Notes: generated from the letters alone by a model not told the origin. A stretch of 33,540 nt of DNA from Patescibacteria group bacterium UBA6102 (GCA_002423555.1 DIWQ01000004.1:1-33540); one strand, 5' to 3'. Shown: positions 3,029 through 22,361, counted from the stretch's first letter. Numbers and translations are program-made.

Positions 3029-3030
3029 CA

Positions 3031-5333: not shown

Positions 5334-6137
5334 ATGGATAAAAAAATCGGCATTGTCGGAGTGGGTGTTGTTGGTAATGCGGTTGCCAGTGTTATTCCGG
5401 GCGTGTTGCTCTATGATAAATACAAAAACATCGGTTCTGTTAAGGAGGTTAATGAAGCCGAGATTATTTTCGTGTGCGTTAATACTCCTTATAATCCCGA
5501 AAAAGGATGCGATATCTCTGCGGTGGATGAGGTTATTTCTCAAATCAAAGGAAACAAAATCATAGTCATAAAATCAACCGTCACTCCCGGAACAACCGAA
5601 AAAATGCAAGCAAAGTATCCACACCACTCCGTATTGTTCAATCCTGAATTTTTGCGCCAAGCGCATGCTACTGATGACATGAAAAATCCCGATGAGCAAG
5701 TTGTCGGGTATACCGCAAAAAGCAAGCAATACGCGCAAGAAATTTTGGATATTCTGCCCAAATCGGAGCATAACTTTATTGTTCCGTCCAAAGACGCGGA
5801 AATGGCAAAATATTTTTCAAACACCTTTTTAGCGCTTAAAGTTATTTTTGCCAACCAGATTTATGATGTATGCCAGAAAATGGGGATTGATTATGATGCG
5901 GTGAAAGAAGTGGCATCGGTCAGTCCGAGATTCGCGTTTTCTCATTTTGACGTAAATTTTGACGGCTACAGAGGTTATAGCGGCGCCTGCTTGCCTAAAG
6001 ATACCAAAGCTTTAATTAGATTTGGCGACGAAATCGGCGTTGACCTCTCCCTGCTTAAAGAAGCTGATATGATCAATAAAAAACTTTTGTTTTCCAATAA
6101 AGATATTTCCGGCGACCTTCTGAAATTATATCAATAA
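5334..6137 (+). CDS. UDP-sugar 6-dehydrogenase family protein (WbpA/Ugd-like), short form lacking the C-terminal UDP-binding domain
   Basis: Start set to ATG 5334 (MDKKIGIVGVGVVGNAV Rossmann motif); track start 5241 would overlap the upstream gene. Motifs FNPEFLRQA, AEMAKYFSNTFLALKVIFANQIYD and catalytic-Cys motif GACLPKD (Cys codon 5988-5990). Only about 48 aa follow the Cys. Confidence 0.7.
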   Translation: MDKKIGIVGVGVVGNAVASVIPGVLLYDKYKNIGSVKEVNEAEIIFVCVNTPYNPEKGCDISAVDEVISQIKGNKIIVIKSTVTPGTTEKMQAKYPHHSVLFNPEFLRQAHATDDMKNPDEQVVGYTAKSKQYAQEILDILPKSEHNFIVPSKDAEMAKYFSNTFLALKVIFANQIYDVCQKMGIDYDAVKEVASVSPRFAFSHFDVNFDGYRGYSGACLPKDTKALIRFGDEIGVDLSLLKEADMINKKLLFSNKDISGDLLKLYQ

Positions 6138-6145
6138 CGAAATAT

Positions 6146-6943
6146 ATGGAATACATAATTGTTGGCTCCGGTTTTATTTTCAGGCGGCACCTTCTTTCAA
6201 TAAAGGAAACCGGCGGCGAAATATTGGATGTTGTTAACGAAACGCACGGTCGGGGAGACGAATGGAAAAAAGCGATTACCAATCCCGACGCGGATTGCGT
6301 GGTTATTCTTGCGCCGAATTATTTACATTATGAAATCGCCAAGGCCGCCAATGAAGCGGGGAAGACCGTTTTGTGCGAAAAGCCGCTGGCGTTAAAATCC
6401 GAACACGTGAAAGATTTGGCTGACCGAAAAAATATTTTTGTGGTCCAGCAGTTGCATTATCACGAGGGAGTGATAAAAATGAGGCGTGAAATATCAAAAG
6501 ATAAACATTATGATATTCACATTGACGTTGATGTTCACCGCGACCGGCACTATTTTGACGGCTGGAAAGGCAATATGGAGTTATCCGGAGGGCCGTTATT
6601 TACTCTTGGTGTTCATTATTTTGAACTTTTGCTGTATCTGTTTGGCCCCGCGACCAGAGCACAGATGACCAGTTTTGACGGTAAAGCCGGCCAGGGGATC
6701 ATTGAAGGAGCCAATTACAACTGTCAATGGCGCGTGAGCGTGGGGGCTCCCGTTGGCCAAAACAAAAGATTTTTCAACGTTAACGGCATTGCCTTAAACC
6801 TTTCCGGCAAGGAAAACCTGGCCGAAGAGAACCTGCATAATTTCGTGTATCAGGATTTACTGCAAGGGAGGGGAGTGACCCCCGCACAAGCTCTTCCGGC
6901 AATTGAATTGATTGAAAAATTATATGACGATTACCATTCATAA
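6146..6943 (+). CDS. wbpB: Gfo/Idh/MocA-family oxidoreductase, WbpB-like (UDP-GlcNAcA 3-oxidase type)
   Basis: Motifs APNYLHYEIA...VLCEKPL, QQLHYHE, GWKG...SGGPLFTLGVHYFELLLYLFG and LHNFVYQDLLQGRG follow the WbpB-type layout as I recall it. Synteny with the acetyltransferase and aminotransferase genes supports the call. Confidence 0.6.
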   Translation: MEYIIVGSGFIFRRHLLSIKETGGEILDVVNETHGRGDEWKKAITNPDADCVVILAPNYLHYEIAKAANEAGKTVLCEKPLALKSEHVKDLADRKNIFVVQQLHYHEGVIKMRREISKDKHYDIHIDVDVHRDRHYFDGWKGNMELSGGPLFTLGVHYFELLLYLFGPATRAQMTSFDGKAGQGIIEGANYNCQWRVSVGAPVGQNKRFFNVNGIALNLSGKENLAEENLHNFVYQDLLQGRGVTPAQALPAIELIEKLYDDYHS

Positions 6944-7502
6944 AACTGCCGAAGTATCAATCAATGCCAAAATCGGCAAGGGCACGAAGATTTGGCAAAA
7001 CGCGCAAATTGCCGATAACAGTGAAATCGGAGAAAACTGTGTCATTGGCCATAATTGCGCGGTCTTTGGCGCAAAAATTGGCGACGGCGTTAAATTGGAA
7101 TCCAATGTTGACGTTTGGCGGGGGGTATTATTGGAAGATTTTGTCTTTGTTGGCCCTTCGGCAGTTTTTACCAACGATTTGAATCCGCGGGCAAAATATC
7201 CCAAAAAAGATTTTTCGCAATATGGCCAGTGGCTTTCAACTTTAATCAAAGAGGGAGCGACTATCGGCGCCAATGCCACAATCGTTTGTGGGACTGTCGT
7301 TGGCAAATGGGCCTTTATTGCCGCTGGAGCGGTTGTCAAGGGGGAAGTTCCCGATTATGCGTTGATGGCCGGGGTTCCCGCCAAGCAAATTGGCTGGATG
7401 TGCGAATGCGCCAGCAAACTTGTTTTTAAGAACGGTATGGCGGCATGCAAAATCTGCGGTCGGAAATATATAAAATCGGGCAATGTTATAAATGAATCGT
7501 AA
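6924..7502 (+). CDS. wbpD: Left-handed beta-helix N-acetyltransferase, WbpD/WlbB-like
   Basis: Hexapeptide repeats (IGKGTKIWQNAQIADNSEIGENCVIGHNCAVFG...) and a C-terminal GVPAKQIGWMCECASKL motif typical of this subgroup. ATG 6924 (MTITIH) is preferred; ATG 6912 is possible. Overlaps the upstream stop. Confidence 0.6.
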   Translation: MTITIHKTAEVSINAKIGKGTKIWQNAQIADNSEIGENCVIGHNCAVFGAKIGDGVKLESNVDVWRGVLLEDFVFVGPSAVFTNDLNPRAKYPKKDFSQYGQWLSTLIKEGATIGANATIVCGTVVGKWAFIAAGAVVKGEVPDYALMAGVPAKQIGWMCECASKLVFKNGMAACKICGRKYIKSGNVINES

Positions 7503-8652
7503 TGCAAATATGGAATTTTTTGATTTGAAAAAGCAATATCAGGATCTAAAATCCGAGATTGACGCGGCGGTTTTGGATGTGCTTGAAGACGGAGTGTTTA
7601 TCGGCGGCCCGGCGGTGGAAAAATTTGAAAAAGAGGTTGCCGATTTTTTGGGGGTAAAGCATGCGGTCACTCTTAATTCCGGCACTGATGCGCTTTATTT
7701 GTCGCTAAGGGCGTTGGGGATTGGCGCGGGAGATGAGGTGATTACCACGGCATTCACTTTTTTTGCCACGGCCGAAGCGATCGCGGCCGCCGGCGCCAAA
7801 CCCGTATTCGTTGATATTGATGCGAAAACTTTTAACATTGACGCCGACCAAATTGAAGCGGCGATTACGGAAAAGACAAAAGCGATCATACCGGTGCATC
7901 TTTTCGGCCAAATGGCAGATATGGCGCCAATTAAGAAGATTGCGCAAAAACATAATCTGAAAATTATTGAAGATTGCGCGCAAGCAATCGGCGCCACTCA
8001 AATTATTAATGGCAAGGAAGTTAAGGCCGGAAATATTGGCGATTGCGGCTGTTTTTCTTTTTTCCCCACCAAAAACTTGGGTGCTTACGGTGACGGGGGA
8101 ATGGCGACGACCAATAACGACGAAATTGCGGCGAAAATCAGAATGTTAAAAGTTCACGGATCATCTCCCGAAAATAAATATAAAAATTTGGAAATCGGCG
8201 TCAATTCTCGTTTGGACGCGATTCAGGCCGCTATTTTGAGTGTCAAGATCAAATATCTTGATCAATGGAATGACCAGCGCGCGGCAATCGCCAATCGCTA
8301 TGGCGAGGCATTTGAAGGCGTTGGCGACATTGTTGCGCCGTTTGCCGCGCTGAACAATCGCCACATCTATCATCAATACACAATAAGAACCGCAAAACGC
8401 GATCAACTGGTGCAATTTTTGAAAAATGCGGAAATTCCCGCAATGATATACTTTCCTTTTCCGATGCACTTGGAGCCCGCATTGGGTTATTTGGGCTATA
8501 AGATGGGCGATTTTCCCGAAGCCGAACGCGCCGCCGCCGAAGTTTTGAGCCTGCCGATCTACCCGGAATTTACGAGAGCGTGTTGCGAATCAGTAGTTCG
8601 TGTAGTGGAAATTTTTTGCAGAAGTCATAAAATAAATCCGTTTAATAATTGA
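7492..8652 (+). CDS. wbpE: DegT/DnrJ/EryC1-family PLP aminotransferase, WbpE-like
   Basis: N-terminus EFFDLKKQYQDLKSEID...FIGGPAVEKFEKEVADFLG, then NSGTDALYLSLRALGIGAGDEVITTAFTFFAT and SFFPTKNLGAYGDGG (PLP Lys). Alternative start ATG 7510. Confidence 0.7.
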   Translation: MNRNANMEFFDLKKQYQDLKSEIDAAVLDVLEDGVFIGGPAVEKFEKEVADFLGVKHAVTLNSGTDALYLSLRALGIGAGDEVITTAFTFFATAEAIAAAGAKPVFVDIDAKTFNIDADQIEAAITEKTKAIIPVHLFGQMADMAPIKKIAQKHNLKIIEDCAQAIGATQIINGKEVKAGNIGDCGCFSFFPTKNLGAYGDGGMATTNNDEIAAKIRMLKVHGSSPENKYKNLEIGVNSRLDAIQAAILSVKIKYLDQWNDQRAAIANRYGEAFEGVGDIVAPFAALNNRHIYHQYTIRTAKRDQLVQFLKNAEIPAMIYFPFPMHLEPALGYLGYKMGDFPEAERAAAEVLSLPIYPEFTRACCESVVRVVEIFCRSHKINPFNN

Positions 8653-8795
8653 CAGTATCAATTTCTTTGCTATATTTTAGAATGATGATCAAGGGGGGAT
8701 TAATAAGGGAAGCGAGTGCTTTTATAAACCGAGGGCGTTGGATAACTGGCAAAATTGTCAAATTTGGAAAATTTACGTACGGAGGATTTTTAAAT

Positions 8796-8804
8796 TGATA
8801 TAAT
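8796..8804 (+). promoter_or_regulatory. Extended -10 promoter element (TGaTATAAT) ahead of the synthase-phosphatase gene
   Basis: TG at 8796-8797 and TATAAT at 8799-8804, inside the only sizeable gap (8653-8831) of the left half of the locus. No good -35. Its position argues against the TTG 8805 start and for ATG 8832. Confidence 0.35.
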
Positions 8805-8831
8805 TTGACGGCTACCCAACACCCTAAAACT

Positions 8832-10394
8832 ATGGCAATCTTAAAGATGGGAGAAAGAGTAATCTCTAACGAAGGGCCAGCTTTTGTTATCGCTGAAATA
8901 GGGCATAACCATCAAGGCAATCTTGGCGTAGCCTTGAATATGATTAAGACTGCGGCGGCCTGCGGAGTTAGCGCAGTCAAGTTTCAAAAACGAGACAATA
9001 AGCATCTTTATACTAAGGCGATGTATAATCGTTCCTATGATAACGAAAATAGTTTTGGTACTACCTATGGCGAGCATCGGGAATTCCTGGAATTTGATTT
9101 TGATGAATACAAACAACTTAAAAAATGCGCTGAAGATAATGGCGTAGAGTTTCTTTGTACAGCTTTTGATATTCCAAGCGTTGATTTTTTGGAAAAGCTC
9201 GGCGTCAACGGTTACAAGGTTGCATCCGGGGATTTAATGAACACTCCTATGCTTGAGCATATCGCTAAGCTTGGCAAACCGATGTTCGTTTCAACGGGTG
9301 CGGGGACGATGGATGAGGCGAAGATGGCATATACGGCAATTAAAAAATACAATGATCAATTGTGTTTTTTGCATGCCATTTCTTCATATCCGGCAGAATA
9401 CGAAGATCTTAACTTAAATGTTATTCCTACCTTGCAGAATGAATTCCCAGATATAATTGTCGGTTATTCCGGCCACGATAACGGTATTTTAGCGGCATCA
9501 ATAGCTTATATGCTGGGGGCTCGGGTGATTGAGAAGCATTTCACGATAAATCGAGCTTGGAAGGGAACGGATCATAAATTTTCGCTGGAACCGGATGGTA
9601 TGCGAAAACAAGTGAGAGATCTCAACCGTATAAAATCTGCTCTTGGCGAAAACGAAAGGAAGGTGTTTCCGATAGAAAAGGATTATCGTGCAAAACAAGG
9701 GAAAAGCATTTTTTCGGCGAAAAATTTGGTCGTGGGCACGATTTTGACAGAAAGCGACATCGTGATTAAATCGCCGGGCGGCGGCATGGAACCTTATAGA
9801 TTAAATGAGGTTATTGGAAAAAAACTAAACCTTTCAATTAATGAAGAAGAAATGATTAAACCGGAACAGCTTGCGGGTGGTAGTCCGGACAACCGCGAAA
9901 TAGCGCTGAGTATGAATGACATAGTCAGGAGATTAAAATTGATTGTCTTTGATTTTGACGGGATTTTTACGGATAACCGCGTAATTGCTATGCAAAATGG
10001 CACCGAGGGCGTTGCTTGTTGGAGAAGTGATGGATTGGGACTTGATGCCTTAAAAGAAACGGGAACAAGCGTTCTTGTTTTGTCCGCAGAGGAAAATCCT
10101 GTTGTTTCGGCGCGTTGCCAGAAGCTGGGTATTGAATGTATCCAGGGGTATCGGGACAAAGCCATTATCCTTAAAAAAGAACTTGGAAAAAGAGGGCTGG
10201 CGCTCGGTGAAATTGCTTATGTCGGGAATGATATTAACGATATTGAATGTTTAAAGATCGCCGGTTTACCGATGACTGTGGCTGATGCTTATTCTGAATT
10301 AAAGCCGTACGTAAAATATACCACAAAGAAGCCGGGAGGATACGGCGCGGTCAGGGAAATTTGCGACATGATTGCTAACATTAAAAATTTATAA
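8832..10394 (+). CDS. Fusion protein: NeuB-type sialic/ulosonic acid (9-phosphate) synthase with SAF domain + KdsC-type HAD phosphatase
   Basis: N-terminal part: FVIAEIGHNHQGNL...AVKFQKR, YSGHDNG, EKHFT, then a SAF-like NLVVGTILTESDIVIKSPGGG. The HAD domain starts at about nt 9933: LIVFDFDGIFTDNRV (DxD motif), SDGLGLDAL, YVGNDINDIECLK. The track start is TTG 8805; ATG 8832 or 8847 is more likely. Confidence 0.8.
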   Translation: MAILKMGERVISNEGPAFVIAEIGHNHQGNLGVALNMIKTAAACGVSAVKFQKRDNKHLYTKAMYNRSYDNENSFGTTYGEHREFLEFDFDEYKQLKKCAEDNGVEFLCTAFDIPSVDFLEKLGVNGYKVASGDLMNTPMLEHIAKLGKPMFVSTGAGTMDEAKMAYTAIKKYNDQLCFLHAISSYPAEYEDLNLNVIPTLQNEFPDIIVGYSGHDNGILAASIAYMLGARVIEKHFTINRAWKGTDHKFSLEPDGMRKQVRDLNRIKSALGENERKVFPIEKDYRAKQGKSIFSAKNLVVGTILTESDIVIKSPGGGMEPYRLNEVIGKKLNLSINEEEMIKPEQLAGGSPDNREIALSMNDIVRRLKLIVFDFDGIFTDNRVIAMQNGTEGVACWRSDGLGLDALKETGTSVLVLSAEENPVVSARCQKLGIECIQGYRDKAIILKKELGKRGLALGEIAYVGNDINDIECLKIAGLPMTVADAYSELKPYVKYTTKKPGGYGAVREICDMIANIKNL

Positions 10395-10412
10395 AAAATC
10401 AAATTATTAATT

Positions 10413-11246
10413 ATGGGAAACAATTATCTTAATTCTTTATATAACTTAAAAGACAAGGTAATTGTTGTAACCGGAGCGGCGGGACAGCTTGGGGGGCAAT
10501 ATGTTCGCGCTATGCTTGAGGTCGGTTGCCGGGTGGTTGCCATTGATTATGATCTAAGCAATCCCAAAGGTAATTTATCGGCTTTGCGATCTGATAATTT
10601 GATGGTTCTTGAGGTTGATATTACAAAAAAAACTTCGATTCAAGGAGCACTGAAAAAAATTTGCGATCAGTTCGGCAAGGTTGACGGATTAATCAACAAT
10701 GCCGCAATTGATGCACCGCCCGGCGGATCGGACGAAAATGTCGGCCCTTTTGAGACTTATCCGGAAACTGCCTGGGACAAAATGATGGAAGTAAATTTGA
10801 AGGGCATGTTTTTGTGTTGTCAGGTTTTTGGTTCCGATATGGTTGCAAAAGGGAGGGGCAGTATTGTTAATATCGCGTCAATTTATGGTATGTTATCTCC
10901 CGACCAGCGCATATATGAATACAAGTATAAAAATGCTGGAGCAAAAGCCAAGCCTTTTTTTAAGCCGGTGGCTTATTCCGTTACCAAATCCGGCGTCTAC
11001 AATTTAACCAGATGGTTGGCGACGTATTGGGCGCCAAGCAATATTCGGGTTAATACTTTGACCTTAGCGGGAGTTTTTAACAATCAGGACGAACCGTTTC
11101 TCGGGAAATATATTCAAAAGGTTCCGCTAGGAAGGATGGCCAAACAGGAGGAGTATTGTGGGGCGATATTGTTCCTGCTTTCAGATGCTTCATCATATAT
11201 GACTGGTTCAAATATGGTTGTTGACGGCGGTTTTTGTTGCTGGTAA
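10413..11246 (+). CDS. Short-chain dehydrogenase/reductase (SDR)
   Basis: VIVVTGAAGQLGG cofactor motif, NNAA, and catalytic YSVTKSG (YxxxK). Confidence 0.8.
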   Translation: MGNNYLNSLYNLKDKVIVVTGAAGQLGGQYVRAMLEVGCRVVAIDYDLSNPKGNLSALRSDNLMVLEVDITKKTSIQGALKKICDQFGKVDGLINNAAIDAPPGGSDENVGPFETYPETAWDKMMEVNLKGMFLCCQVFGSDMVAKGRGSIVNIASIYGMLSPDQRIYEYKYKNAGAKAKPFFKPVAYSVTKSGVYNLTRWLATYWAPSNIRVNTLTLAGVFNNQDEPFLGKYIQKVPLGRMAKQEEYCGAILFLLSDASSYMTGSNMVVDGGFCCW

Positions 11247-11274
11247 AGATTTTGTTAATTTTATTAGCTAAAAA

Positions 11275-12759
11275 ATGAGTCAATTTTTTAAAAATTTTAT
11301 TGGAGGAAAATGGGTTGATCCGGTGTCCGGAGATTTTTTTGAAAACAAAAATCCGTCTGATATCGGCGAGGTAATGGGACTGTTTCCAAGGTCGGGAAAA
11401 GCGGATATTGATGCGGCGGTTTTGGCCGCTTCCGCCGTTTTTGATAATTGGCGAAGTATGCCTCCCCACGAGAGGGCGAAAATTATTTTTGAGGCGGGAA
11501 AGATTATGTCCGGTCGAAAAAAAGAGTTGGCGGAAATTATCTCTAAAGAAAATGGAAAGACGGTCAAATCCGCGATGGGCGATGTTCAATCCGCAATTGA
11601 TATGTCTTTTTTTATCGGTGGGGAGGGATATCGATGGTATGGAAAAACCGCTCATTCGGCGCTTCCCCAGCGGTTTGCGATGACCAAGCGTTATCCGATC
11701 GGAATAGTCGGGCTCATTCCGTCTTGGAATTTCCCGATGGGACTGGCGGGATGGAGGGTTTTTCCGGCGCTTTTTTGCGGTAATGCCGTGATCATGAAAT
11801 CGGAAGAAAATACACCGGAAAGTGCTCACTGCATAACTGAAATTCTTGATGAAGCGGGTTTGCCGAAAGGTGTTCTTAATCTTATTCATGGCTTGGGAAG
11901 CGAAGCGGGGGATGCGTTAGTCAACCATCCCGGAGTATCAATGATTTCATTTACGGGTTCGAGTAAGATCGGGAGCCTTGTCGGAGTTAATTGCCTGAAA
12001 AAATTGGCTAAGACCTCCTTGGAGCTTGGCGGTAAAAATGCAGTGATAGTTATGGATGATGCCGACATCAATCTGGCCGTCAACGGGGTTGTCGCCGGGG
12101 CCTTTTCCCTATCTGGCCAGCGTTGCACTGCCACAAGCCGTCTGATTTTACAGGATGGCATTTACGATTTTTTTATGGAAAGGCTCCTTAACGCCACTGG
12201 TAAGTTAAAGATTGGCCCTGGTAGCGACGATGCTTCCGATGTGACACCCTTGATTAGCAAGGTTCAATGCGAACGTATATTGAACTGGATAGAACGGGCA
12301 AGGGAAGATGGTGCTAAAGTGATCCGAGGCGGGGAAAGATTGGAAGGTGGTGTTTACGATAAGGGGTATTATATCAATCCGACTATTATTATTGATGCGT
12401 TGCCTGATTCCTCAATAGCCAGAGAAGAAATTTTTGGGCCGGTACTCGTGGTTTTTCGCGTCCAATCGTTTGACGAAGCGGTTAAAATTGCGAATAACGC
12501 GCGTTACGGTTTATCAGCTTCGCTGTTTACCAAGGACTTGAATAGAGCTTTCACTTTCTTTGATGATATCCAAACTGGGGTTTGCTATATTAACGCACCA
12601 ACCTATGGCGGAGAACCACATATGCCGTTTGGGGGCGTAAAAGATTCCGGACTTGGCTACCGGGAGGTTGGCTGGGCCGGAGTCGAAGCTTATTCGGAAG
12701 TTAAAACAATATACGTTGATTACAGCGCGAAAATTCAGACAATTCAAGAAAAAAAATAA
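11275..12759 (+). CDS. NAD(P)-dependent aldehyde dehydrogenase family protein
   Basis: N-terminus FIGGKWVD, LELGGKNA (catalytic Glu), GQRCTATSR (catalytic Cys) and EEIFGPV. Confidence 0.85.
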   Translation: MSQFFKNFIGGKWVDPVSGDFFENKNPSDIGEVMGLFPRSGKADIDAAVLAASAVFDNWRSMPPHERAKIIFEAGKIMSGRKKELAEIISKENGKTVKSAMGDVQSAIDMSFFIGGEGYRWYGKTAHSALPQRFAMTKRYPIGIVGLIPSWNFPMGLAGWRVFPALFCGNAVIMKSEENTPESAHCITEILDEAGLPKGVLNLIHGLGSEAGDALVNHPGVSMISFTGSSKIGSLVGVNCLKKLAKTSLELGGKNAVIVMDDADINLAVNGVVAGAFSLSGQRCTATSRLILQDGIYDFFMERLLNATGKLKIGPGSDDASDVTPLISKVQCERILNWIERAREDGAKVIRGGERLEGGVYDKGYYINPTIIIDALPDSSIAREEIFGPVLVVFRVQSFDEAVKIANNARYGLSASLFTKDLNRAFTFFDDIQTGVCYINAPTYGGEPHMPFGGVKDSGLGYREVGWAGVEAYSEVKTIYVDYSAKIQTIQEKK

Positions 12760-12772
12760 TTTTTTGAGCTCA

Positions 12773-14695
12773 ATGGTAAATATATCTTTTGTTGATAAAA
12801 AAGAAATTGATCGGATAATTAATGCTGTTACAGATAAAAATTCCAGACTTGATATTTTGGCTGATATCTGCCGCCTTAATGCGCTTTCCGCGGTCAAGAA
12901 AGCTGGTTCCGGCCATCTTGGGTCCAGCTTCTCGGCAATGGAAATTATGGTTGCGATGTATTTTTCAGAATTGAATTTGACTCAAGCAGGATTAAAAAAT
13001 AAAGACAGGGATATTTATTTTTCTTCAAAGGGTCATGATTGTCCAGGGCATTATTCCGTGCTTATGGCTGCTGGGATTTTGCCATTTGAAAAATTGATTA
13101 ACTTGAGGCGCTTGGGAGGATTGGACGGTCATCCGGATGTCGCGATTCCTGGAATGGAGGCAAACACCGGCTCTTTGGGGATGGGCATTTCCAAAGCCAA
13201 GGGAATGGCGATTGCAAAGAAAATGAAAGGTAGCGGCGGTCGGATATTTGTGATGTTGGGCGATGGCGAACTCCAGGAGGGTCAGATATGGGAATCATTG
13301 CAAACCACCGTTGCCCAGAAAGTAAGCAATATTACCGCAATTGTTGATTTTAACAAAATTCAGACCGATCGTCCGATTGTCGCGAATGTTGACTTGGGCG
13401 ATTTGGAAAGTAAGTTCCGAATTTTTGGTTGGCACGCTGAACGTTGTAACGGTCACGATTTTGCCCAGCTTCAGGAAGCATTTGAAAAATTAAAACAAAT
13501 TGTCAATAAGCCTAAAGTTTTGATTGCCGATACTGTCAAAGGTGAAGGCGTGTCGTTTATGGAAGGTGGCGAAATTGTGAAAACCGGATGCGGAACATAC
13601 AAATGGCATTCCGGCGCTCCGCAAGATGATGACTATACCAGGGCTTTTTCTGAAATTCTGGATAGAATCAATAAAAAACTTTCCGGGTTTGGCTCGGCTC
13701 AGTTAGAATTGAAAGATGTGGAAAAACGCGAATCCAGAGTCCACTTGAAAGATATTGCCGAGAAGGTCGTTAATACATACGCGGATACCCTGGTTAGGTT
13801 GGGCGCGGAGAGAAAAGATATTGTGGTTCTGGACGCCGATCTTGCATGTGATTGCGGGCTACGCCCGTTTGAGCAGGCATATCCGGATCGCTTTATTGAA
13901 CATGGTATTGCCGAACAGGATATGGTTTCGACTGCCGGCGGCCTCGCCAAGCAGGGTTTTCTTCCCATTGTGAATTCCTTCGGTGTCTTTCTCTCATCGC
14001 GTTCCAACGAACAAATTTACAATAATGCCACCGAACTGACAAAAATAATTTATGTTTGCCATTATTCGGGCATGATACCGGCTGGACCCGGTAAATCGCA
14101 TCAGAGCGTGCGCGATATCTCGCTTTTTGGTGCGTTGCCGAATATGGTTATCGTTGAGCCGGTTAACGCGGTTGAGACAAAAGCCACTCTTGAATGGTGC
14201 GTGAAATTCGCAAAAGAAAATTGCATGATCCGGCTTATAATTTCCCCGTCGCCGCAAACGATCAGTTTGCCGCAAAATTATGAGTTCATATTTGGCAGGG
14301 GATCAGTTATCCGGGAAGGCAACGATGCGGTTATATTTGCCTACGGTCCGGTAATGGCTAACGAGGCGCTTAAAGCTGGCGATGAACTGGCTAAGCGAGA
14401 GTTTTCTTTGAAAATAATCAATATGCCATGGCTTAATCGGGTTGACATAGGTTGGTTTGAAAGCGTTATCGGGGATTGTGCGGCAATCTATGTGCTTGAT
14501 GATCACTTTATTTACGGCGGCCTGGGAGATTCGCTTTTAAATGCAATAAATTGTTCCAAGGCACTGAAGCAAAAGAAATTCAAGAAATTCGGCATAGAAA
14601 ATGAATATCCAGCGTGCGGCACTCCCAAAGAAGTTCTTTCTTACCACAAATTGGACGGTGAAAGCCTGGCCGCCCGGATTCTTAAAGATAAATAG
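12773..14695 (+). CDS. Transketolase-family ThDP enzyme (short-type N- and C-terminal halves fused in one 640-aa chain)
   Basis: Start set to ATG 12773; track start 12653 overlaps the ALDH gene. Motifs SGHLGSSFSAMEIMVAMY, ThDP motif GDGELQEGQIWES, and pyrimidine-binding EHGIAEQDMVSTAGGLA. Confidence 0.75.
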   Translation: MVNISFVDKKEIDRIINAVTDKNSRLDILADICRLNALSAVKKAGSGHLGSSFSAMEIMVAMYFSELNLTQAGLKNKDRDIYFSSKGHDCPGHYSVLMAAGILPFEKLINLRRLGGLDGHPDVAIPGMEANTGSLGMGISKAKGMAIAKKMKGSGGRIFVMLGDGELQEGQIWESLQTTVAQKVSNITAIVDFNKIQTDRPIVANVDLGDLESKFRIFGWHAERCNGHDFAQLQEAFEKLKQIVNKPKVLIADTVKGEGVSFMEGGEIVKTGCGTYKWHSGAPQDDDYTRAFSEILDRINKKLSGFGSAQLELKDVEKRESRVHLKDIAEKVVNTYADTLVRLGAERKDIVVLDADLACDCGLRPFEQAYPDRFIEHGIAEQDMVSTAGGLAKQGFLPIVNSFGVFLSSRSNEQIYNNATELTKIIYVCHYSGMIPAGPGKSHQSVRDISLFGALPNMVIVEPVNAVETKATLEWCVKFAKENCMIRLIISPSPQTISLPQNYEFIFGRGSVIREGNDAVIFAYGPVMANEALKAGDELAKREFSLKIINMPWLNRVDIGWFESVIGDCAAIYVLDDHFIYGGLGDSLLNAINCSKALKQKKFKKFGIENEYPACGTPKEVLSYHKLDGESLAARILKDK

Positions 14696-14708
14696 CGGTA
14701 TTGACATA

Positions 14709-16028
14709 ATGACGAAATTTTTGCGTTCAAGTAAATTCGTTGAATATTCCGCCGGCACGATTGTGACCCAATATGCGATTCTTTTTGTTTCTTTAGTGTC
14801 GTCAATTATTACGGCCCGGTTGCTTGGGCCTGCTGGCTTGGGTCAACTTACGCTTCTTCTTTTGATACCTTGGTTTGCCACGGTGTTCGGCAGAATGGGG
14901 GTGGGGCATTCGGTCAATTATCATTTTGGAAAACTTTCTCCTGCCAAAATTATTGTCAATAGCTTGATTCTATCAGGGGTGCTTGGTATTTTATGTATGG
15001 CGGCCACATTTCTCGTTGCTTACTTTTTTAAGGGCACATTGCTGAAAGATGTTAATTGGAATTTGATAATTTTTTCCATCTTTTTCATCCCGTTTTATAT
15101 ATTAAGCGACCATTTGGCCGGCCTTTTGCAGGGGCTCTACAAATTGCATCTTCGTAATATCATTTATTTTTTTCAGGCGGTTATAAATTTAGTTATGATG
15201 GCCTTTTTTGTAATATTGATGAAATGGGGGGTAAGCGGTGCGGTCGGTGCGTCGATGTTTTCGCTGGTATTTCTGGCATTTGCACTGGCAGTGCCCGTTA
15301 TGAAAGAAATTAAGGGGAAAGAATTAAAAATTGATCTTAATATTATGAAACAGATTTTTGGATACGGGTTGAAATCACATGTCGGAAATATTACCAAAGA
15401 CCTTAGTTATCGGATAAATATACCCATTATCAATTATTATTTAATGCCGATTTCTGTCGGTTATTATACTATTGCCGTCCAACTTGCTGAAGTTATCTGG
15501 AAAATTCCCGAATCCATCAGCTCGGTTTTGCTTCCGAAAATAGTACAGATGAAAAAAGAGCAAGCTTATTTGTTTACGCCTCTTATAATGCGCACCTTAT
15601 TTGTGCCTTTGCTTGCATGTTGCTTGGCGGTTTTAGTTTTTGGGCAAGCGCTGATAGTATTGATTTATGGCAAAGAATTTTTGCCATCGGCTTCCCTTAT
15701 TGTTTTTTTATTGCCGGGGATTTTATCTTTATCATTCTGGAAAATCATCATCAGCGATTTGATCGCCCAGGGCCATGCCGAAAAATACAGTGCGACATCA
15801 GTGCTTTCGCTGGCAACAATGGTTATCCTTAATCTGTTACTGATTCCCGTTATGGGCATACAGGGAGCGGCAATCGCCCTAAGTCTTTCATATATTGCTA
15901 CCACCGGCCTTGCTTTAATTTTTTATGCGAGATTGACTAAAAACTCTTTTAAAAATTTGCTATTGCCAACGGCGGCTGATGTTGATATTTATAAAAAATT
16001 GCTTGGTGTTGGCTCTCCTAGGACATAA
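14709..16028 (+). CDS. wzx: Wzx-type polysaccharide flippase (MOP superfamily)
   Basis: Start set to ATG 14709, just after the upstream stop. The 439-aa product has many TM segments and the typical N-terminus ...SAGTIVTQYAILFVSLVSSIITARLLGPAGLGQ. Confidence 0.7.
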   Translation: MTKFLRSSKFVEYSAGTIVTQYAILFVSLVSSIITARLLGPAGLGQLTLLLLIPWFATVFGRMGVGHSVNYHFGKLSPAKIIVNSLILSGVLGILCMAATFLVAYFFKGTLLKDVNWNLIIFSIFFIPFYILSDHLAGLLQGLYKLHLRNIIYFFQAVINLVMMAFFVILMKWGVSGAVGASMFSLVFLAFALAVPVMKEIKGKELKIDLNIMKQIFGYGLKSHVGNITKDLSYRINIPIINYYLMPISVGYYTIAVQLAEVIWKIPESISSVLLPKIVQMKKEQAYLFTPLIMRTLFVPLLACCLAVLVFGQALIVLIYGKEFLPSASLIVFLLPGILSLSFWKIIISDLIAQGHAEKYSATSVLSLATMVILNLLLIPVMGIQGAAIALSLSYIATTGLALIFYARLTKNSFKNLLLPTAADVDIYKKLLGVGSPRT

Positions 16029-16078
16029 CCCAAGCAAATGATAATATGATAAAATACGAGAAAATAATATAATTGCTT

Positions 16079-16723
16079 ATGGATAAATGGGTGGAATATT
16101 TTGAAAATACAAACAGAAATCTCTTTGACCAGTGCTTGCGCAACCGGCGTTTGATTGAATTGGTGATTCAAAATACGCCGGCTGGCGGTCGTATACTTGA
16201 GGTAGGATGTGGCACAGCATTGCTGTCTTTAATACTGGCTGATCATGGTTTTGAGGTTACCGCTCTTGATATAAGTAAGGAAGTTGTGAATTACGCTCAA
16301 AAAAGAGCTTGTTTGGGTAAGATTAAATTGAAGTTTATCCAAGGAGACAGCTTTAATCTCAATTCATTGTTTGAGAATCGTTTTTTTGATACAGTTTGCC
16401 ATAGTGGCGTCATGGAGCATTTTAGCGATGCTGATATTATTAGGGGCCTATTAGAACAAAGACGGGTATCGAAAAGGGTTATTTTCAATGTTCCAAACAG
16501 TCGGGTTAAATCAGCCCCCAATCTTTTTGGAGATGAAAGGTTTTTAAACCAAGAAAAATGGATGGAATTGATCAAGAAAGCAGGATTTAACAAGGTTAAA
16601 GTATTTGGGGGATATGACCTGCCACGATATGTTTATTTTATCTTGCCTGGCGTTTTCTTTAATCAGAGGTTTTCTTTTTGGTGGAAATATTTTAGTAAAC
16701 ATTCAATTTTTGTATGCGAATAA
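16079..16723 (+). CDS. Class I SAM-dependent methyltransferase
   Basis: Motif I RILEVGCGTALLSL plus the acidic loop VTALDIS. ATG 16079 is preferred over TTG 16073. Confidence 0.75.
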   Translation: MDKWVEYFENTNRNLFDQCLRNRRLIELVIQNTPAGGRILEVGCGTALLSLILADHGFEVTALDISKEVVNYAQKRACLGKIKLKFIQGDSFNLNSLFENRFFDTVCHSGVMEHFSDADIIRGLLEQRRVSKRVIFNVPNSRVKSAPNLFGDERFLNQEKWMELIKKAGFNKVKVFGGYDLPRYVYFILPGVFFNQRFSFWWKYFSKHSIFVCE

Positions 16724-16731
16724 AAGTCAAT

Positions 16732-17442
16732 ATGAGGATATTGGGATTTATACCTGCGAGAGCGGGATCAAAAAGAATATCAGGGAAGAACATCATGCCT
16801 TTAGCGGGTAAGCCTTTGCTCGCCCATACCATTGAGGCCGCCAAAAAGTCAAAATATATAAATAGGGTGTTGGTTTCGACGGATTCGGAAAATATCGCAA
16901 AAATAGCCGAACAGTATGGTGCCGAAGTTCCTTTTTTAAGGCCGGAGGAAATTTCCAGAACAGATTCCACCGAAATGCAATTCTTTGAACATGCCTTGGG
17001 TTGGCTTGTTAAAAATGAAAACTATGTTCCTGATCTGATAGTTTTGCTTTATCCGACATCGCCGTTTAGAAAGCCGGAAACTATTGATCGTGCCATTGAG
17101 AAGATTTTTGAATACCCCGATGCGGATTCTTTAAGATCGGTCAGGTTGTGTTCTGAACATCCGCATAAGATGTGGGTCATTGACAATAATTTGTTGAAGC
17201 CGTTGATTAAAAGCGAAAAATCAAGCGATCACACTCTTTCTTACCAATCACTGCCGAAAGTTTATATCCAAAATGCCAGTATTTACATTACCAAACCGAG
17301 AACCATAAGAGAGATGAAATCACCGATTGGGAATATCGTCATACCTTTCATTATGGATGAGATGGAGTCAATTGATATAAACAACCCAATTGATTTTAAA
17401 ATTGCCGAAATGGTTGCAAAAGATATGAAAATAAAAAGATAA
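16732..17442 (+). CDS. CMP-ulosonic acid synthetase (acylneuraminate cytidylyltransferase, NeuA/KdsB-like)
   Basis: RILGFIPARAGSKRISGKNIMPLAGKPLL and VLVSTDSENI, the CTP_transf_3 signature. ATG 16732 is preferred; 16714 would overlap the upstream gene. Confidence 0.8.
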   Translation: MRILGFIPARAGSKRISGKNIMPLAGKPLLAHTIEAAKKSKYINRVLVSTDSENIAKIAEQYGAEVPFLRPEEISRTDSTEMQFFEHALGWLVKNENYVPDLIVLLYPTSPFRKPETIDRAIEKIFEYPDADSLRSVRLCSEHPHKMWVIDNNLLKPLIKSEKSSDHTLSYQSLPKVYIQNASIYITKPRTIREMKSPIGNIVIPFIMDEMESIDINNPIDFKIAEMVAKDMKIKR

Positions 17443-17449
17443 AGATGCT

Positions 17450-18853
17450 ATGGAAAACAAAAAAGATTCTGTCAAAAAGCCAATATTATTTATGTCTGCT
17501 TCAACCGGCTGGGCGGTTAGGAATTTTTTTCAAACGGGCATCGTTAGGAAATTAAACGATGACTTCAAAATAGTTGTTTTTACCACATCTCAAATTAGGG
17601 AAGGCTTAGTTGGTCAGGGATATGGCGGCGATTTGACATTTATAGTTTTAGATAAGTTTTCAGAGCCTTTAGCATGGCGTTTATCAAGGCAGTTAAAAAA
17701 GAAGATTTATATGGAAAGCCGGCGAAGCGCGACTGAGACAATTTGGGAAAAATATACAAAAAGGCCGATTTATCAAAAAATTGGCGGTAAAATGATCAGG
17801 GGGTTAATCCGGATAATAAAACCGGGCAGATTACTAGATTGGATAGAGAATATTGATTTAAAAATTAATAGGAACGGCGAACTTTCGGAAATATTTCTTT
17901 CGCATCGGCCGGTTATTTTTTTTGCCACTCATGCCTCATCGTTCTTTGAAGAATCGCTGCTTAAAAATTCATTAGAGAACGGCGTTCCGGCTGTTTATAT
18001 GGTTCTAAGCTGGGATCATCTTTCAAGTAAGATTGTTTTGAATAAAAAGTACCGGTCGATTTTCGTTTGGAACAAAATGACAAAATCAGAAATTTTATCG
18101 ACCTATCCTTCTTACAATGACAATCAAATTAAAATTATTGGTGTTCCGCAGTACGATATTTACGGAAGAAAAACAAAAATTTCTCGACTTGAGTGGTGTC
18201 AGCTTTATGGATTGAATCCAAATTGGCCAGTGATACTTTTCAGCACGATGCCTCAGGTCAGGCATAACCAGCAACATATTATTATTGAAAAGCTACTGGA
18301 AGAAATTGCTAAAGGTGACAAATTGCCCAATAATTTGCAGGTTTTGATCAAATGCCATCCATTTGATAATACCGATAAATACGATTCGTTGCCGGCGAAG
18401 TATCCGGTGTCGATTTACCGGTCATCTTTGCGCCCGGGGCTATCCCAAGCCTGTTGGATTCCCTCCAAAAGGGAGATGGAGGCATCTCGGGATTGTCTTT
18501 TTTTTTGTGATATCAACATAAATATTTTTTCCACCGTAACGCTGGAAGCGGCCTATTTCGGAAAACCGATAGTCCATATCGCTTTTGATCCTTTTCCAAT
18601 AAAAAACCGGATTCCTTGCAAAGAATACTATAATTTTGAACATTTTAAAAAAATCGCCAGAACAAAAGCGGCTCGAATGGTTTATTCTTATGAAGATATG
18701 TTTCTGGCCATAAATGACTATTTAAAGAATCCTGGCTTAGATTCGGAGAAAAGGAAAGATTTGGTTAAAGAATATTTTACCGTGGAACCCGGTCTTGCTT
18801 CCGGCAATTTAGTCAAAGAATTGGTTGATTTAAAAAATACTTTGTTGAACTGA
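17450..18853 (+). CDS. GT-B-like glycosyltransferase candidate (TagF/KpsS/sialyltransferase-like, HP motif); specific function unknown
   Basis: 467 aa, soluble. LIKCHPFD carries an H-P dipeptide at 18356-18361, in a position reminiscent of the HP motif of sialyl-/beta-Kdo-/TagF-type transferases. Lies directly downstream of the cytidylyltransferase. No firm family assignment is possible by eye. Confidence 0.35.
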   Translation: MENKKDSVKKPILFMSASTGWAVRNFFQTGIVRKLNDDFKIVVFTTSQIREGLVGQGYGGDLTFIVLDKFSEPLAWRLSRQLKKKIYMESRRSATETIWEKYTKRPIYQKIGGKMIRGLIRIIKPGRLLDWIENIDLKINRNGELSEIFLSHRPVIFFATHASSFFEESLLKNSLENGVPAVYMVLSWDHLSSKIVLNKKYRSIFVWNKMTKSEILSTYPSYNDNQIKIIGVPQYDIYGRKTKISRLEWCQLYGLNPNWPVILFSTMPQVRHNQQHIIIEKLLEEIAKGDKLPNNLQVLIKCHPFDNTDKYDSLPAKYPVSIYRSSLRPGLSQACWIPSKREMEASRDCLFFCDININIFSTVTLEAAYFGKPIVHIAFDPFPIKNRIPCKEYYNFEHFKKIARTKAARMVYSYEDMFLAINDYLKNPGLDSEKRKDLVKEYFTVEPGLASGNLVKELVDLKNTLLN

Positions 18854-18855
18854 CG

Positions 18856-20259
18856 ATGGAGCATCTTATTATTTTGGCGTTATCAACGCTTGTCATATTT
18901 TTTCTCATGTTTTTGGTATGGGTTAAAACCAAAGAGATTTCTTTTATCTTTGGCCTTTTAATAGTTTTTCTTTTTACTATTCTGGGAGGCTGGATTATTA
19001 CAATTGATCTTATTTTTGATAATATCTGCAGTAAATATGGATTTAACTATTATTATTTGTTTGATAAAATGTTTCCCGTCAGCCTGGATGGCGATTATTT
19101 AATGGCAATTGTTTTTTATTCTTTGTTTGTTATTTTTATTGAATTGGCGATATTGGTTTTTGCTGCAAAGAAAAACCCGGGTGTCGGTTTGAAATTTTCT
19201 CCCTATTTTTTTTCCCATTGGCGGCTGATCTTTTTTGTAATATTTTTTTCTTTTTCCAGTTTTTTTATAATGAGGGATTTTTTGATAGAGGCAATTTCAT
19301 CGGGAACGTCAGCCTATTTTTTAACTAGATATTCTACCGATAGAATTCCTTTCTATACGATCCATCAAATATTTATTCGGATGGCTCTTTTCCCGTTAGC
19401 CGTCGGAATAGCTGTTTATTTAAGCGGAAAAAAGGGAAAATATTTTTTAGGAGGGAGCGGACATTTGATTTTTTGGAGTTATGCCGTGATTTCTTCGGTT
19501 ATTGTTGCGTATGCCGCTTTATTGGGGAACAGGAACGAATTGGTCGGAGCGGCTATCATAGGATTTCTTTTTTATATAGTTAATGCCAAAAAAATTTCTA
19601 AAATTGGATTTTTGACCGCTTTTATCGGCGTTATTGCCGCCGTTGGGGTGATTGGAATCATCCGTGGCAGCAACCCTTCTTCTTATCTGGCTAGCATGAA
19701 GCTTGGAACCCTTGTCAACGGGTTAGCAAGTATTTTAACGACTAATGAAATATTTGCCGCCCATCTTTCGATGTATGGATCTCTTCATTATGGTATTCCA
19801 TTGGTTTATGGTTACAGTTTTATCAGCTTAGCATCGTCCATTGTCCCAAGTGACCTTTGGCCGGATAGGCCGCAAAATATCTACTGGCACTATTTCAATC
19901 ATATTAATGCGGTGCCGGGACAAGGCTATGTAATCCATCATGCTACTGGATGGTATCTCAATTTTGGCTTGATAGGAATTGTTGCGGGAGCCGTTTTGAT
20001 CGGATGGCTTTGGGCAGAATGCTTTAATAGCCGAGCGTTGATAAAGGGAGGCCGGTATTTCATTTATAATGTTTTCGCGGTATTGGCCCCCACTTTGTTT
20101 ATAAGTGCTCTCCCTACTTTGATGAGGGGGGGATTGGAATCGTATAAAGCGGTGGCTTTGGAACATTTTCTATTTCCGATATTGATAGTTGTTTTTTCTA
20201 TTAAACAGATCAAAGGGTCAAATTTGAAATTAAGCGGTAATTCACCAAAGAATATCTAG
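18856..20259 (+). CDS. Polytopic membrane protein, probable Wzy-type glycan polymerase
   Basis: 467 aa, 10 or more hydrophobic segments, very AT-rich (15/60 GC in 19021-19080). Located among the flippase and GT genes. No diagnostic motif. Confidence 0.5.
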   Translation: MEHLIILALSTLVIFFLMFLVWVKTKEISFIFGLLIVFLFTILGGWIITIDLIFDNICSKYGFNYYYLFDKMFPVSLDGDYLMAIVFYSLFVIFIELAILVFAAKKNPGVGLKFSPYFFSHWRLIFFVIFFSFSSFFIMRDFLIEAISSGTSAYFLTRYSTDRIPFYTIHQIFIRMALFPLAVGIAVYLSGKKGKYFLGGSGHLIFWSYAVISSVIVAYAALLGNRNELVGAAIIGFLFYIVNAKKISKIGFLTAFIGVIAAVGVIGIIRGSNPSSYLASMKLGTLVNGLASILTTNEIFAAHLSMYGSLHYGIPLVYGYSFISLASSIVPSDLWPDRPQNIYWHYFNHINAVPGQGYVIHHATGWYLNFGLIGIVAGAVLIGWLWAECFNSRALIKGGRYFIYNVFAVLAPTLFISALPTLMRGGLESYKAVALEHFLFPILIVVFSIKQIKGSNLKLSGNSPKNI

Positions 20260-22347: not shown

Positions 22348-22361
22348 ATAGAGTAATAAAA

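Follow-up and report, generated by a model that had tools for sequence, protein, structure and literature searches.

Ulosonic acids such as Kdo, Kdn and the sialic, pseudaminic and legionaminic acids are key sugars of cell surfaces, and their pathways are held to be well mapped; we know of, and found, no thiamine diphosphate (ThDP) enzyme in a described ulosonic acid pathway. The genes considered here lie in a 33,540-nucleotide stretch of DNA from Patescibacteria group bacterium UBA6102 (GCA_002423555.1 DIWQ01000004.1:1-33540), which at its full length is called the window. Three adjoining genes at 10413-14695 encode a short-chain dehydrogenase/reductase (SDR), an aldehyde dehydrogenase (ALDH) and a transketolase (TK)-like ThDP enzyme, and they stand between the gene of a NeuB-type synthase and those of a flippase and a cytidylyltransferase. 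Most likely these three enzymes are the tailoring half of a six-function cassette (NeuB, KdsC-type phosphatase, SDR, TK, ALDH and cytidylyltransferase), which most likely yields an ulosonic acid, shortened in its chain and activated with cytidine monophosphate (CMP), for a surface glycan. That the cassette is a dedicated and so far undescribed one for tailoring CMP-ulosonic acids is held with high confidence. The association had been called possibly undescribed in an earlier sequence-only reading, and the literature searched yielded no paper on a TK in a NeuB, nonulosonic acid or Kdn cassette.

With the CMP-Kdn pathway of Bacteroides thetaiotaomicron and Prymnesium parvum the cassette has in common a NeuB-type synthase, a C0-type HAD phosphatase, a CTP_transf_3 cytidylyltransferase and the phosphorylate/dephosphorylate logic; that pathway ends at Kdn, whereas the cassette adds the SDR, the TK-like enzyme and an ALDH or aminotransferase, and the domains in the window score under the equivalog cut-offs. 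According to PMC6200933, BT1714 is the Kdn-9-P synthase, BT1713 the phosphatase and BT1715 the CMP-Kdn synthetase of B. thetaiotaomicron, and the formation of Kdn-9-P followed by its dephosphorylation is demonstrated for both organisms. Another parallel is offered by Kdo8N of Shewanella, where the tail of a free 2-keto-3-deoxy acid is converted, through the Kdo 8-oxidase KdnB, to an aldehyde and then to an amine, much as in the ALDH/aminotransferase step of the cassette; KdnB, however, belongs to the iron-type alcohol dehydrogenases and works at the terminal carbon, with no TK and no shortening, in contrast to the SDR and ThDP enzyme found here. Gattis et al. are said to have described in 2013 this order for Kdo8N, an oxidase and then an aminotransferase (KdnA). 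Neither the window nor the co-conserved clusters contain an iron-type alcohol dehydrogenase, and the likeness to Kdo8N is one of logic only. Dedicated TKs, among them Orf15 of the rifamycin/3-amino-5-hydroxybenzoate (AHBA) pathway, the sulfofructose transketolase SqwGH and apulose-4-phosphate transketolase, take two carbons off a non-standard ketose, which leaves a specialised aldehyde; their substrates are ketoses with a phosphate or sulfonate group, they serve catabolism or the making of antibiotics, and we know of none in ulosonic-acid or nucleotide-sugar biosynthesis. While the synthase, phosphatase and cytidylyltransferase follow the already-known CMP-Kdn logic, the TK-like enzyme with a rebuilt substrate channel inside a nucleotide-sugar cassette is new, and so is the predicted product class, a CMP-ulosaric acid.

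Domains of the open reading frames (ORFs) in the window were called by Pfam and NCBIfam profile searches, and catalytic motifs were read from the translations. The genes of the six functions are as follows.

8832-10394, + strand: fusion of a NeuB synthase and a KdsC-type (C0 HAD) phosphatase (Pfam NeuB, E 2e-79; Hydrolase_3)
10413-11246, + strand: SDR (Pfam adh_short/adh_short_C2, E 3e-43)
11275-12759, + strand: non-acylating ALDH (Pfam Aldedh, entire profile, E 2e-158)
12773-14695, + strand: single-chain TK-like ThDP enzyme, 640 amino acids (Pfam Transketolase_N, Transket_pyr and Transketolase_C)
16714-17442, + strand: cytidylyltransferase, a CMP-ulosonic acid synthetase (Pfam CTP_transf_3, E 5e-27)

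The ORF of the fusion opens at a TTG (8805), with ATG 8832 as the likely start, and that of the TK (12653-14695) opens at a TTG within the ALDH gene; ATG 12773, 13 nt past the ALDH stop, is a plausible start and gives the 640 residues. Further spacers measure 18 nt from the NeuB stop to the SDR, 28 nt from the SDR to the ALDH and 13 nt between the TK stop and the start codon of the flippase (ATG 14709), and the + strand is kept from the NeuB-HAD gene through those for the flippase, a methyltransferase and the cytidylyltransferase. Intact motifs are present in the SDR (TGxxxGxG and S...YxxxK), the ALDH (ELGGKN and GQRCTA), the TK (GDG...N, the activating Glu and the His cluster) and the HAD domain (DFDG and GNDxND). 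Pfam domains and motifs thus agree with the identities and position that the sequence-only reading had given to the three central genes, and the tight co-directional spacing it had remarked on (gaps of 13-28 nt, all on the + strand) is confirmed.

Conservation of this arrangement is the main evidence for a dedicated cassette. A scan of one genome per species gave at least 593 confirmed members of the TK family, and the window TK has thousands of relatives at about 65% identity. Neighbourhoods with 10-kb flanks were collected for the best 80 of the at least 593 members and searched by tblastn with the window proteins, and all ORFs of 84 loci were clustered all-against-all; the census covered 57 loci outside Ignavibacteria, 37 of them informative, with at least 6 kb on both flanks. 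At least one of NeuB, ALDH, cytidylyltransferase and aminotransferase lies within 10 kb of the TK in 35 of the 37 informative loci, at least three of four partners in 27/37, and NeuB in 30/37; of 33 NeuB genes, 32 share the strand of the TK, and the median distance is 4.2 kb. Among the 84 loci the co-conserved clusters are the cytidylyltransferase (36), NeuB (34), ALDH (32), SDR (27) and HAD (21 plus fusions), the TK itself occurring in 83 by construction, since it was the query. The synthase, KdsC/KDN9P-type phosphatase and cytidylyltransferase, which stand together in the window locus, are co-conserved as a trio in the relatives. The gene most often adjacent to the TK is that of the cytidylyltransferase, present in 35 of the 57 loci and usually immediately upstream, and the SDR gene accompanies the TK in 26 of the 57. 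It was thus found, as the sequence-only reading had supposed of genes dedicated to the ulosonic-acid module, that SDR, ALDH and TK keep their linkage to neuB and neuA.

The genes follow the order NeuB-(HAD)-SDR-ALDH-TK-cytidylyltransferase, or the cytidylyltransferase precedes the TK. The complete genome of Thermosulfuriphilus ammonigenes, a cultured carrier (CP048877, locus L001), has NeuB-SDR-ALDH-TK-cytidylyltransferase followed by a KpsS/C-like gene, and a metagenome-assembled genome (MAG) of Dehalococcoidia has NeuB-HAD-SDR-ALDH-TK with the cytidylyltransferase further downstream. Carriers belong to more than 10 bacterial phyla and include deltaproteobacterial/Desulfobacterales MAGs, Thiohalobacter and other Gammaproteobacteria, Chloroflexota, Pirellulales, Acidobacteriota, Nitrospirota, Gemmatimonadota, Actinomycetota, Aminicenantia and Ca. 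Auribacter, as well as one archaeon. In this Methanoregulaceae MAG (locus L041, 2303-11902) the full cassette is laid out as two divergent units, ALDH-SDR-HAD-NeuB and cytidylyltransferase-TK, implying that it has passed from one domain of life to another. NeuB, ALDH, cytidylyltransferase and SDR each show pairwise distances that correlate with those of the TK (r 0.37-0.59, Mantel p <= 0.0015, 16 loci), which fits co-inheritance as a module, shared organismal phylogeny also contributing to the correlation.

That an ordinary pentose-phosphate TK and housekeeping dehydrogenases came to lie in a glycan locus by chance would suit the public annotation of family members as transketolase or Dxs and the solitary position of those in Ignavibacteria; it is hardly credible in view of a linkage kept in more than 10 phyla, the loss of canonical substrate-binding residues and scores under the equivalog cut-offs. 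A phylogeny including E. coli TktA, a check that the sequence-only reading had proposed, places the TK family far off from it. Furthermore, two transketolases are annotated in Melioribacter roseus (PMC3534657), a carrier of a solitary member, so that the solitary copy need not be its pentose-phosphate enzyme. The solitary Ignavibacteria genes were weighed as a sign of a housekeeping role and set aside on account of these two transketolases and of the tree, in which the solitary TKs form one derived clade nested among cassette-linked genes.

Apart from the six functions and the aminotransferase, the clusters that come next in frequency are KpsS/C-like proteins, an ABC-transporter pair and unannotated proteins of 385-480 amino acids encoded directly after the TK, all putative transferases and export proteins. 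No further enzyme is co-conserved in the ORF clustering of the 84 loci, where kinases, isomerases, ligases and acyltransferases are not recurrent; the pathway must therefore start from central metabolites. This bears on one of two roles considered in the sequence-only reading, a glycolyl-type decoration of the sugar: the TK would free glycolaldehyde, to be turned into glycolate by the ALDH (or into ethanolamine by the aminotransferase) and attached. TK-like enzymes do provide glycolyl units in some natural-product pathways, and glycolaldehyde is a plausible substrate for both the ALDH and the class-III aminotransferase. Nevertheless, no activating CoA ligase, carrier protein or acyltransferase is co-conserved, nor is an amino sugar, the core having no aminotransferase that would create a site for N-acylation; the operon of Bacteroidota, described below, is self-contained without activating or transferring enzymes, and the SDR would be left unexplained. 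Such a donor function is quite improbable and less well supported than tailoring after the synthase.

The TK-like enzyme itself combines an intact catalytic centre with an altered substrate channel. Among solved structures it comes nearest to human TKT (E 1e-66) and to the characterised split TK of Carboxydothermus hydrogenoformans. Since human TKT has the same single-chain three-domain layout and chain length, a single-chain TK of about 640 residues is not unusual, although the sequence-only reading had taken it to be. Residues were mapped onto human TKT (3MOS/4KXU), the C. hydrogenoformans enzyme (6YAK/6YAJ) and E. coli TktA and Dxs (NC_000913), with a family alignment of 84 sequences, cassette-linked and solitary. 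Because the MAFFT alignment with the long E. coli TktA misplaces some loops (His261, Arg358), these positions were taken from ungapped HMMER alignments with human TKT and the split TK. With the canonical TKs (human TKT, the split TK and TktA) the window enzyme shares the fold, the ThDP/Mg2+ motif, the activating Glu and the histidines: the three TK domains (PF00456, PF02779, PF02780) are present, G163-D164-G165...N194 and E381 are invariant in the 84 members, and so are H48, H88, H120, H279 and H443, aligned to human His37, His77, His110 and His258 and to E. coli His473.

In canonical TKs of the human type Arg318, Ser345, His416 and Arg474 bind the sugar phosphate, and Asp424 (yeast Asp477) forms hydrogen bonds with the C4-OH of the donor and the C2-OH of the acceptor. 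All five are among the quantum-mechanical-layer residues of an active-site model built around the xylulose 5-phosphate-ThDP adduct (PMC8016368). It is here that the cassette family departs from the canonical enzymes: Arg318 is replaced by Val333 or a gap, Ser345 by Asp360, His416 by Tyr/Phe431 (adjacent to an invariant His430), Glu423-Asp424 by Gly438-Pro439, and Arg474 by Ile490 or Pro492. The motif G-E-D-G-P-(S/T)-(Q/H)-Q becomes an invariant P-A-G-P-G-(K/Q)-S-H-Q, its Asp aligning to Pro439 or Ala437. These replacements agree across three references (human TKT, 6YAJ and E. coli TktA) and throughout the 84-sequence family, in which C361, R364 and H430 are new invariant residues and position 441 is Lys or Gln, mostly Lys. 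Judging by these residues, the enzyme would retain ketol cleavage or transfer and would act on a substrate that has neither the terminal phosphate of the usual ones nor a free hydroxyl where the Asp makes contact.

Matches to NCBIfam models are below the cut-offs for NF004559 (394 bits, cut-off 488), NF004556 (321, 575) and TIGR00232 (153, 682), as well as for the Dxs model TIGR00204 (195, 466). The active site of Dxs has no counterpart of TK His100 and uses Arg478 and Asp427 for glyceraldehyde 3-phosphate. As E. coli Dxs has a Phe (Phe107) where the family has H120, the active site is of the TK and not of the Dxs type; Dxs Arg478 corresponds to Ile490. Members are publicly labelled 'transketolase', 'transketolase C-terminal domain-containing protein' or 'Dxs', the last of which appears doubtful from these residues; the labels 'transketolase' and 'Dxs' are probably wrong, and such labels enter metabolic reconstructions of MAGs.

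The other role considered in the sequence-only reading was that of precursor supply, in which SDR, ALDH and TK would act before NeuB and make an unusual aldose phosphate for the synthase-phosphatase. Pathway-specific TKs that make an aldose for a synthase condensing phosphoenolpyruvate (PEP) are known, for example in the aminoshikimate route, and the SDR-ALDH-TK genes stand directly behind the synthase gene. Against this, the TK family is without the textbook phosphate-binding residues; an ALDH or aminotransferase working ahead of NeuB would destroy the aldehyde that NeuB needs, so that a dialdehyde intermediate would be required; the aldoses that a TK releases from central ketose phosphates are already central metabolites; and neither an isomerase nor a kinase is among the co-conserved families. 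Precursor supply is thus unlikely, and tailoring after the synthase is better supported. Also considered was a uronate route: the TK would cleave fructuronate or tagaturonate, and the resulting four-carbon aldehydo-acid would be condensed with PEP by NeuB. It was rejected because neither the fused phosphatase nor the ALDH would then have a function.

Variants of the cassette indicate what lies downstream of the TK. The cassettes of environmental Bacteroidota lack the ALDH and have in its stead a class-III aminotransferase resembling glutamate-1-semialdehyde aminomutase. The two are mutually exclusive (31 loci with the ALDH versus 4 with the aminotransferase), and three more aminotransferase loci were found besides. 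Both enzymes use aldehydes, so their exchange implies that the pathway contains a free aldehyde; as that of the aldose has already been used by NeuB, a second one must be produced. A Kdo8N-like oxidation of the tail without shortening, by which the SDR would form a terminal aldehyde on the way to a 9-carboxy or 9-amino nonulosonic acid, with the TK auxiliary or unrelated, fits the exchange equally well, and Kdo8N offers a precedent, in which first an oxidase and then an aminotransferase works on the free ulosonic acid. However, although the TK as the query is present in every locus by construction, none of the seven aminotransferase loci and none of the SDR-less cassettes of Anaerolineae does without it, and a chemically idle TK would not keep a specifically remodelled channel; primary alcohols, moreover, are rarely substrates of SDRs, and the named relatives of this SDR that act on sugar acids and polyols work on next-to-last carbons. 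Oxidation without shortening is accordingly rather unlikely.

The Bacteroidota operon consists of seven genes, for a weakly Epimerase_2-like protein, the cytidylyltransferase, TK, aminotransferase, SDR, HAD and NeuB (L033, 8159-15543; L089, 6235-13537; L090, 6212-13538), the NeuB being without a SAF domain. It stands alone between unrelated genes, outside any large polysaccharide locus, which suggests that it makes an amino-ulosonic acid destined for some conserved structure, for example the core of lipopolysaccharide (LPS). The best match of its HAD is the BT1713 model (159.5 bits). A tie to the characterised Kdn genes of B. thetaiotaomicron was sought in such a cassette, and no direct biochemical anchor was obtained; the 120 matches listed for the variant TK include no cultured Bacteroides. 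In an Anaerolineae locus of Ca. Villigracilis (L065, 6597-11977) a NeuC-like UDP-GlcNAc 2-epimerase directly precedes ALDH-cytidylyltransferase-TK and no NeuB lies within 10 kb, which hints that some versions start from N-acetylmannosamine and not from a sugar phosphate.

The affinities of the remaining enzymes bear on the steps before and after cleavage. Of the structures in the PDB, SpsE, NeuB and PseI match the NeuB domain and KdsC/YrbI the HAD domain. In NCBIfam the fusion reaches 294 bits with NeuB_NnaB (cut-off 400), 80 bits with the KDN-9-P phosphatase (180) and 107.3 bits with the KdsC subfamily model, barely passing its cut-off of 106.95; the HAD domain is nearer to the KdsC models than to BT1713, and neither comparison singles out a sugar-phosphate substrate. 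The fusion itself implies that the NeuB product is phosphorylated and is dephosphorylated at once, giving a free CH2OH tail. All NCBIfam matches of the SDR are below cut-off: PRK09186 is at the top (181.8 bits, cut-off 255) with PtmA, the flagellin-modification SDR of legionaminic acid loci (143.5, 350), and after this uncharacterised group come GolD/DthD, D-mannonate oxidoreductase and gluconate 5-dehydrogenase, with KduD lower (129 bits). GolD/DthD, mannonate oxidoreductase, gluconate 5-dehydrogenase and KduD oxidise the next-to-last carbon, turning -CHOH-CH2OH into -CO-CH2OH. The likeness to PtmA was tried as a guide to the mechanism of the SDR and dropped; the score is below cut-off and PtmA is assigned to another part of its pathway, a paper on P. 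shigelloides placing it in the first, GDP-GlcNAc segment of legionaminic acid synthesis. For the ALDH, the best families are alpha-ketoglutaric semialdehyde dehydrogenase (489 bits, cut-off 770) and 2,5-dioxovalerate dehydrogenase (472, 750), which lead the next family by 60-80 bits and act on the tail aldehyde of a 2-keto-3-deoxy acid; on these scores the ALDH may be called a relative and not a member of them.

Taken together, these data are compatible with the following route, for which the chances are put at about even: synthesis of a Kdn-9-P-type compound, dephosphorylation, oxidation at C8, cleavage by the TK, oxidation at C7 to a 3-deoxy-heptulosaric acid, and CMP activation. The NeuB domain would condense PEP with an omega-phosphorylated aldose, in the simplest case mannose-6-P, to a Kdn-9-P-type nonulosonate, and the fused HAD domain would strip off the phosphate and expose a -CHOH-CH2OH tail. 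By turning C8 into a ketone, the SDR would give this tail the likeness of a ketose head, HOCH2-CO-CHOH-; by our reasoning, 8-keto-Kdn read from C9 is D-threo, as TK donors require. The TK with its ThDP would attack the C8 ketone, break the C7-C8 bond and take off a glycolaldehyde unit, leaving an aldehyde at C7; the oxygen at the position of the lost Asp would be the ring oxygen of the pyranose. The ALDH would then oxidise the C7 aldehyde to a 3-deoxy-hept-2-ulosaric (dicarboxylic) acid, or, in Bacteroidota, the class-III aminotransferase would make a 7-amino sugar instead. Finally, the cytidylyltransferase would activate the product, and TagF-like or KpsS/C-like transferases with Wzx/Wzy or ABC machinery would bring it into a glycan. 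Trimming could also take place on the CMP-sugar, since the cytidylyltransferase is the commonest immediate neighbour of the TK. We infer the substrates, the order of the steps, the stage of CMP activation relative to trimming, the chain length and the stereochemistry. Such a route would use each co-conserved enzyme once and need no others, and it would explain why ALDH and aminotransferase replace each other, why the TK no longer binds phosphate and why the dehydrogenases resemble the families they do.

As the reactions of TKs are reversible, the enzyme might instead add a two-carbon ketol unit to the aldehyde of an ulosonic acid and give a C11 sugar; the recent SugarBase preprint (bioRxiv 10.64898/2026.04.20.719630) reports higher-carbon CMP-ulosonic acids from Magnetospirillum. 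Those sugars, however, are C10 diamino compounds and the preprint draws no link to a TK. The product of an extension would be a ketose without an aldehyde, and the ALDH would thus be left without a substrate, which makes extension very improbable.

Several points weigh against the cleavage route. No match to an equivalog model reaches its curated cut-off, the KdsC subfamily model being the only one passed. The likenesses of the SDR are modestly above generic SDR scores, with a small margin over FabG-type models, and generic SDR, glucose 1-dehydrogenase and BudC models interleave with the named matches, so that the affinities of the SDR argue weakly for oxidation at C8. The new basic residues of the TK, R364 and K441, could in principle bind phosphate in another way, and an AlphaFold2 model from a 14-sequence alignment (pLDDT 63, pTM 0.57, active-site loops <50) was not used. 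The route names no acceptor for the two-carbon unit, and we know of no glycan with such a sugar from the carrier organisms. Its chief weaknesses are the SDR-less cassettes of Anaerolineae and the solitary clade of Ignavibacteria. The former have the order NeuB-ALDH-cytidylyltransferase-TK with neither SDR nor HAD within 10 kb, so that the ketone-forming step needs an unlinked or different enzyme there. In the latter (Ignavibacteria/Chlorobiota/Kapaibacteria) the TK is solitary and has the same active-site signature, its neighbours being unrelated genes such as those of PdxJ, transporters and DUF386, and the TK family may have, or have gained, another function.

The solitary copies keep their synteny near pdxJ, beside DUF386 (YhcH/YjgK/YiaL), as in L056 (6925-7641 and 12530-12979) and likewise in L042, L046, L049, L055 and L057; elsewhere DUF386 is linked to sialic-acid and keto-sugar-acid metabolism.

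The product predicted by the cleavage route can be compared with Dha (3-deoxy-D-lyxo-heptulosaric acid), a constituent of plant rhamnogalacturonan II, green-algal scales and some bacterial LPS. Dha is a C7 2-keto-3-deoxy dicarboxylic acid and falls into the predicted class; it is D-lyxo, whereas trimmed Kdn would by our own reasoning be the L-arabino isomer. Among the papers listed on Dha and biosynthesis, none announces the enzymes that make it in its title or the opening lines of its abstract. It is tentatively suggested that the cassette is the first route to a CMP-activated Dha-type C7 ulosaric acid or its 7-amino analogue, with a phosphate-blind TK trimming a free or CMP-linked nonulosonic acid. 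This offers a testable hypothesis for the origin of Dha-type seven-carbon ulosaric acids and, if true, a candidate answer to how they are synthesised. The occurrence of the cassette in at least several hundred species-level genomes of many phyla points to a widespread uncharacterised acidic sugar of environmental microbes and to a TK subfamily with a new class of substrate, of interest for carbon-carbon bond biocatalysis; on the reading just suggested, the sugar would be a new one on the surface of many uncultured bacteria and at least one methanogen, and the TK subfamily would be new as well.

The window as a whole is a single co-directional glycan locus, and near-identical DNA occurs in metagenomes from hydrocarbon, groundwater, landfill, wastewater and oil-facility sources; a search of RNA-seq runs gave none with the locus. 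Other features around the cassette are the following.

8649-8676, + strand: promoter-like site, TTGACA-16 nt-TATATT with extended TG (11/12 matches)
14709-16028, + strand: Wzx-type flippase with 11 transmembrane (TM)-like segments (Pfam Polysacc_synt and Polysacc_synt_3; hydropathy)
16073-16723, + strand: class I S-adenosylmethionine-dependent (SAM) methyltransferase (Pfam Methyltransf_25/31/11)
17450-18853, + strand: soluble TagF-like/BFO_1060-like protein (Pfam Glyphos_transf, E 2e-6)
18856-20259, + strand: polytopic membrane protein with 11 TM-like segments (hydropathy; no Pfam or NCBIfam match)

The promoter-like site is the top-scoring one in 8400-17600 and sits ahead of the cassette in a gap of about 180 nt, the sole sizeable intergenic one; promoter-like sites overall are no more numerous than in shuffled sequence, and 8649-8676 is a lead only. 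Promoter (8400-17600) and terminator scans gave chance-level results overall, antisense ORFs inside the region have no family match, and an Rfam search of the window returned no family and no TPP riboswitch. The methyltransferase possibly methylates the sugar; methyltransferases recur beside the cassettes of other phyla. The cytidylyltransferase reaches 152 bits with PseF (cut-off 206) and 66 bits with the KdsB-type model. On its similarities, the protein of 17450-18853 is the probable transferase for the CMP-sugar, with 47 bits against the NCBIfam BFO_1060 family glycosyltransferase domain (cut-off 200 not reached) and weak homologues encoded directly after the TK in L009, L015, L028, L045 and L066. 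The polytopic protein of 18856-20259 is probably the Wzy-type polymerase of the locus. Pfam-less proteins of 385-480 amino acids from several unrelated families (c9, c13, c15 and c18) are encoded directly downstream of the TK in L005, L006, L012, L014, L015, L018, L034 and other loci and may be new transferases for the sugar; family c18 bears a weak likeness to the TagF-like protein of the window.

Upstream of the 180-nt gap lie WbpA/B/D/E-like genes for a 2,3-diacetamido uronic acid (5334-8652). At the head of this block, 5334-6137 encodes a UDP-glucose/GDP-mannose dehydrogenase homologue of about 267 amino acids whose N-domain match begins at profile position 72 and which lacks the C-terminal UDP-binding domain; truncation or loss of function is possible, and the adjoining GFO_IDH_MocA protein (265 amino acids) also looks short. 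Farther along the locus there are genes for an epimerase/dehydratase, GT4 and GT2 transferases, a second methyltransferase, a DegT aminotransferase and an initiating sugar transferase, as well as for a PglF-like dehydratase, Wzz and a Wzy_C protein. The G+C content is 0.42-0.46 in the NeuB-SDR-ALDH-TK block, falls to 0.37-0.39 over 15000-24000, where the genes for the flippase, transferases and polymerase lie, and is 0.46-0.55 beyond them; this gives the locus a mosaic look, as if the histories of its enzymatic cassette and its serotype-specific genes were different. An AbiEii-type nucleotidyltransferase toxin gene (31384-32163) overlaps the end of an unannotated ORF of 210 amino acids (30765-31397), the two probably forming a type IV toxin-antitoxin pair; they are inserted after the Wzy_C/O-antigen-ligase-like gene and before murB. 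Ahead of the glycan genes, 698-5319 encodes two large secreted or anchored proteins with one N-terminal hydrophobic segment each, one of 776 amino acids with an LCAT-like lipase domain and one of 589 amino acids with a C-terminal peptidoglycan-binding domain.

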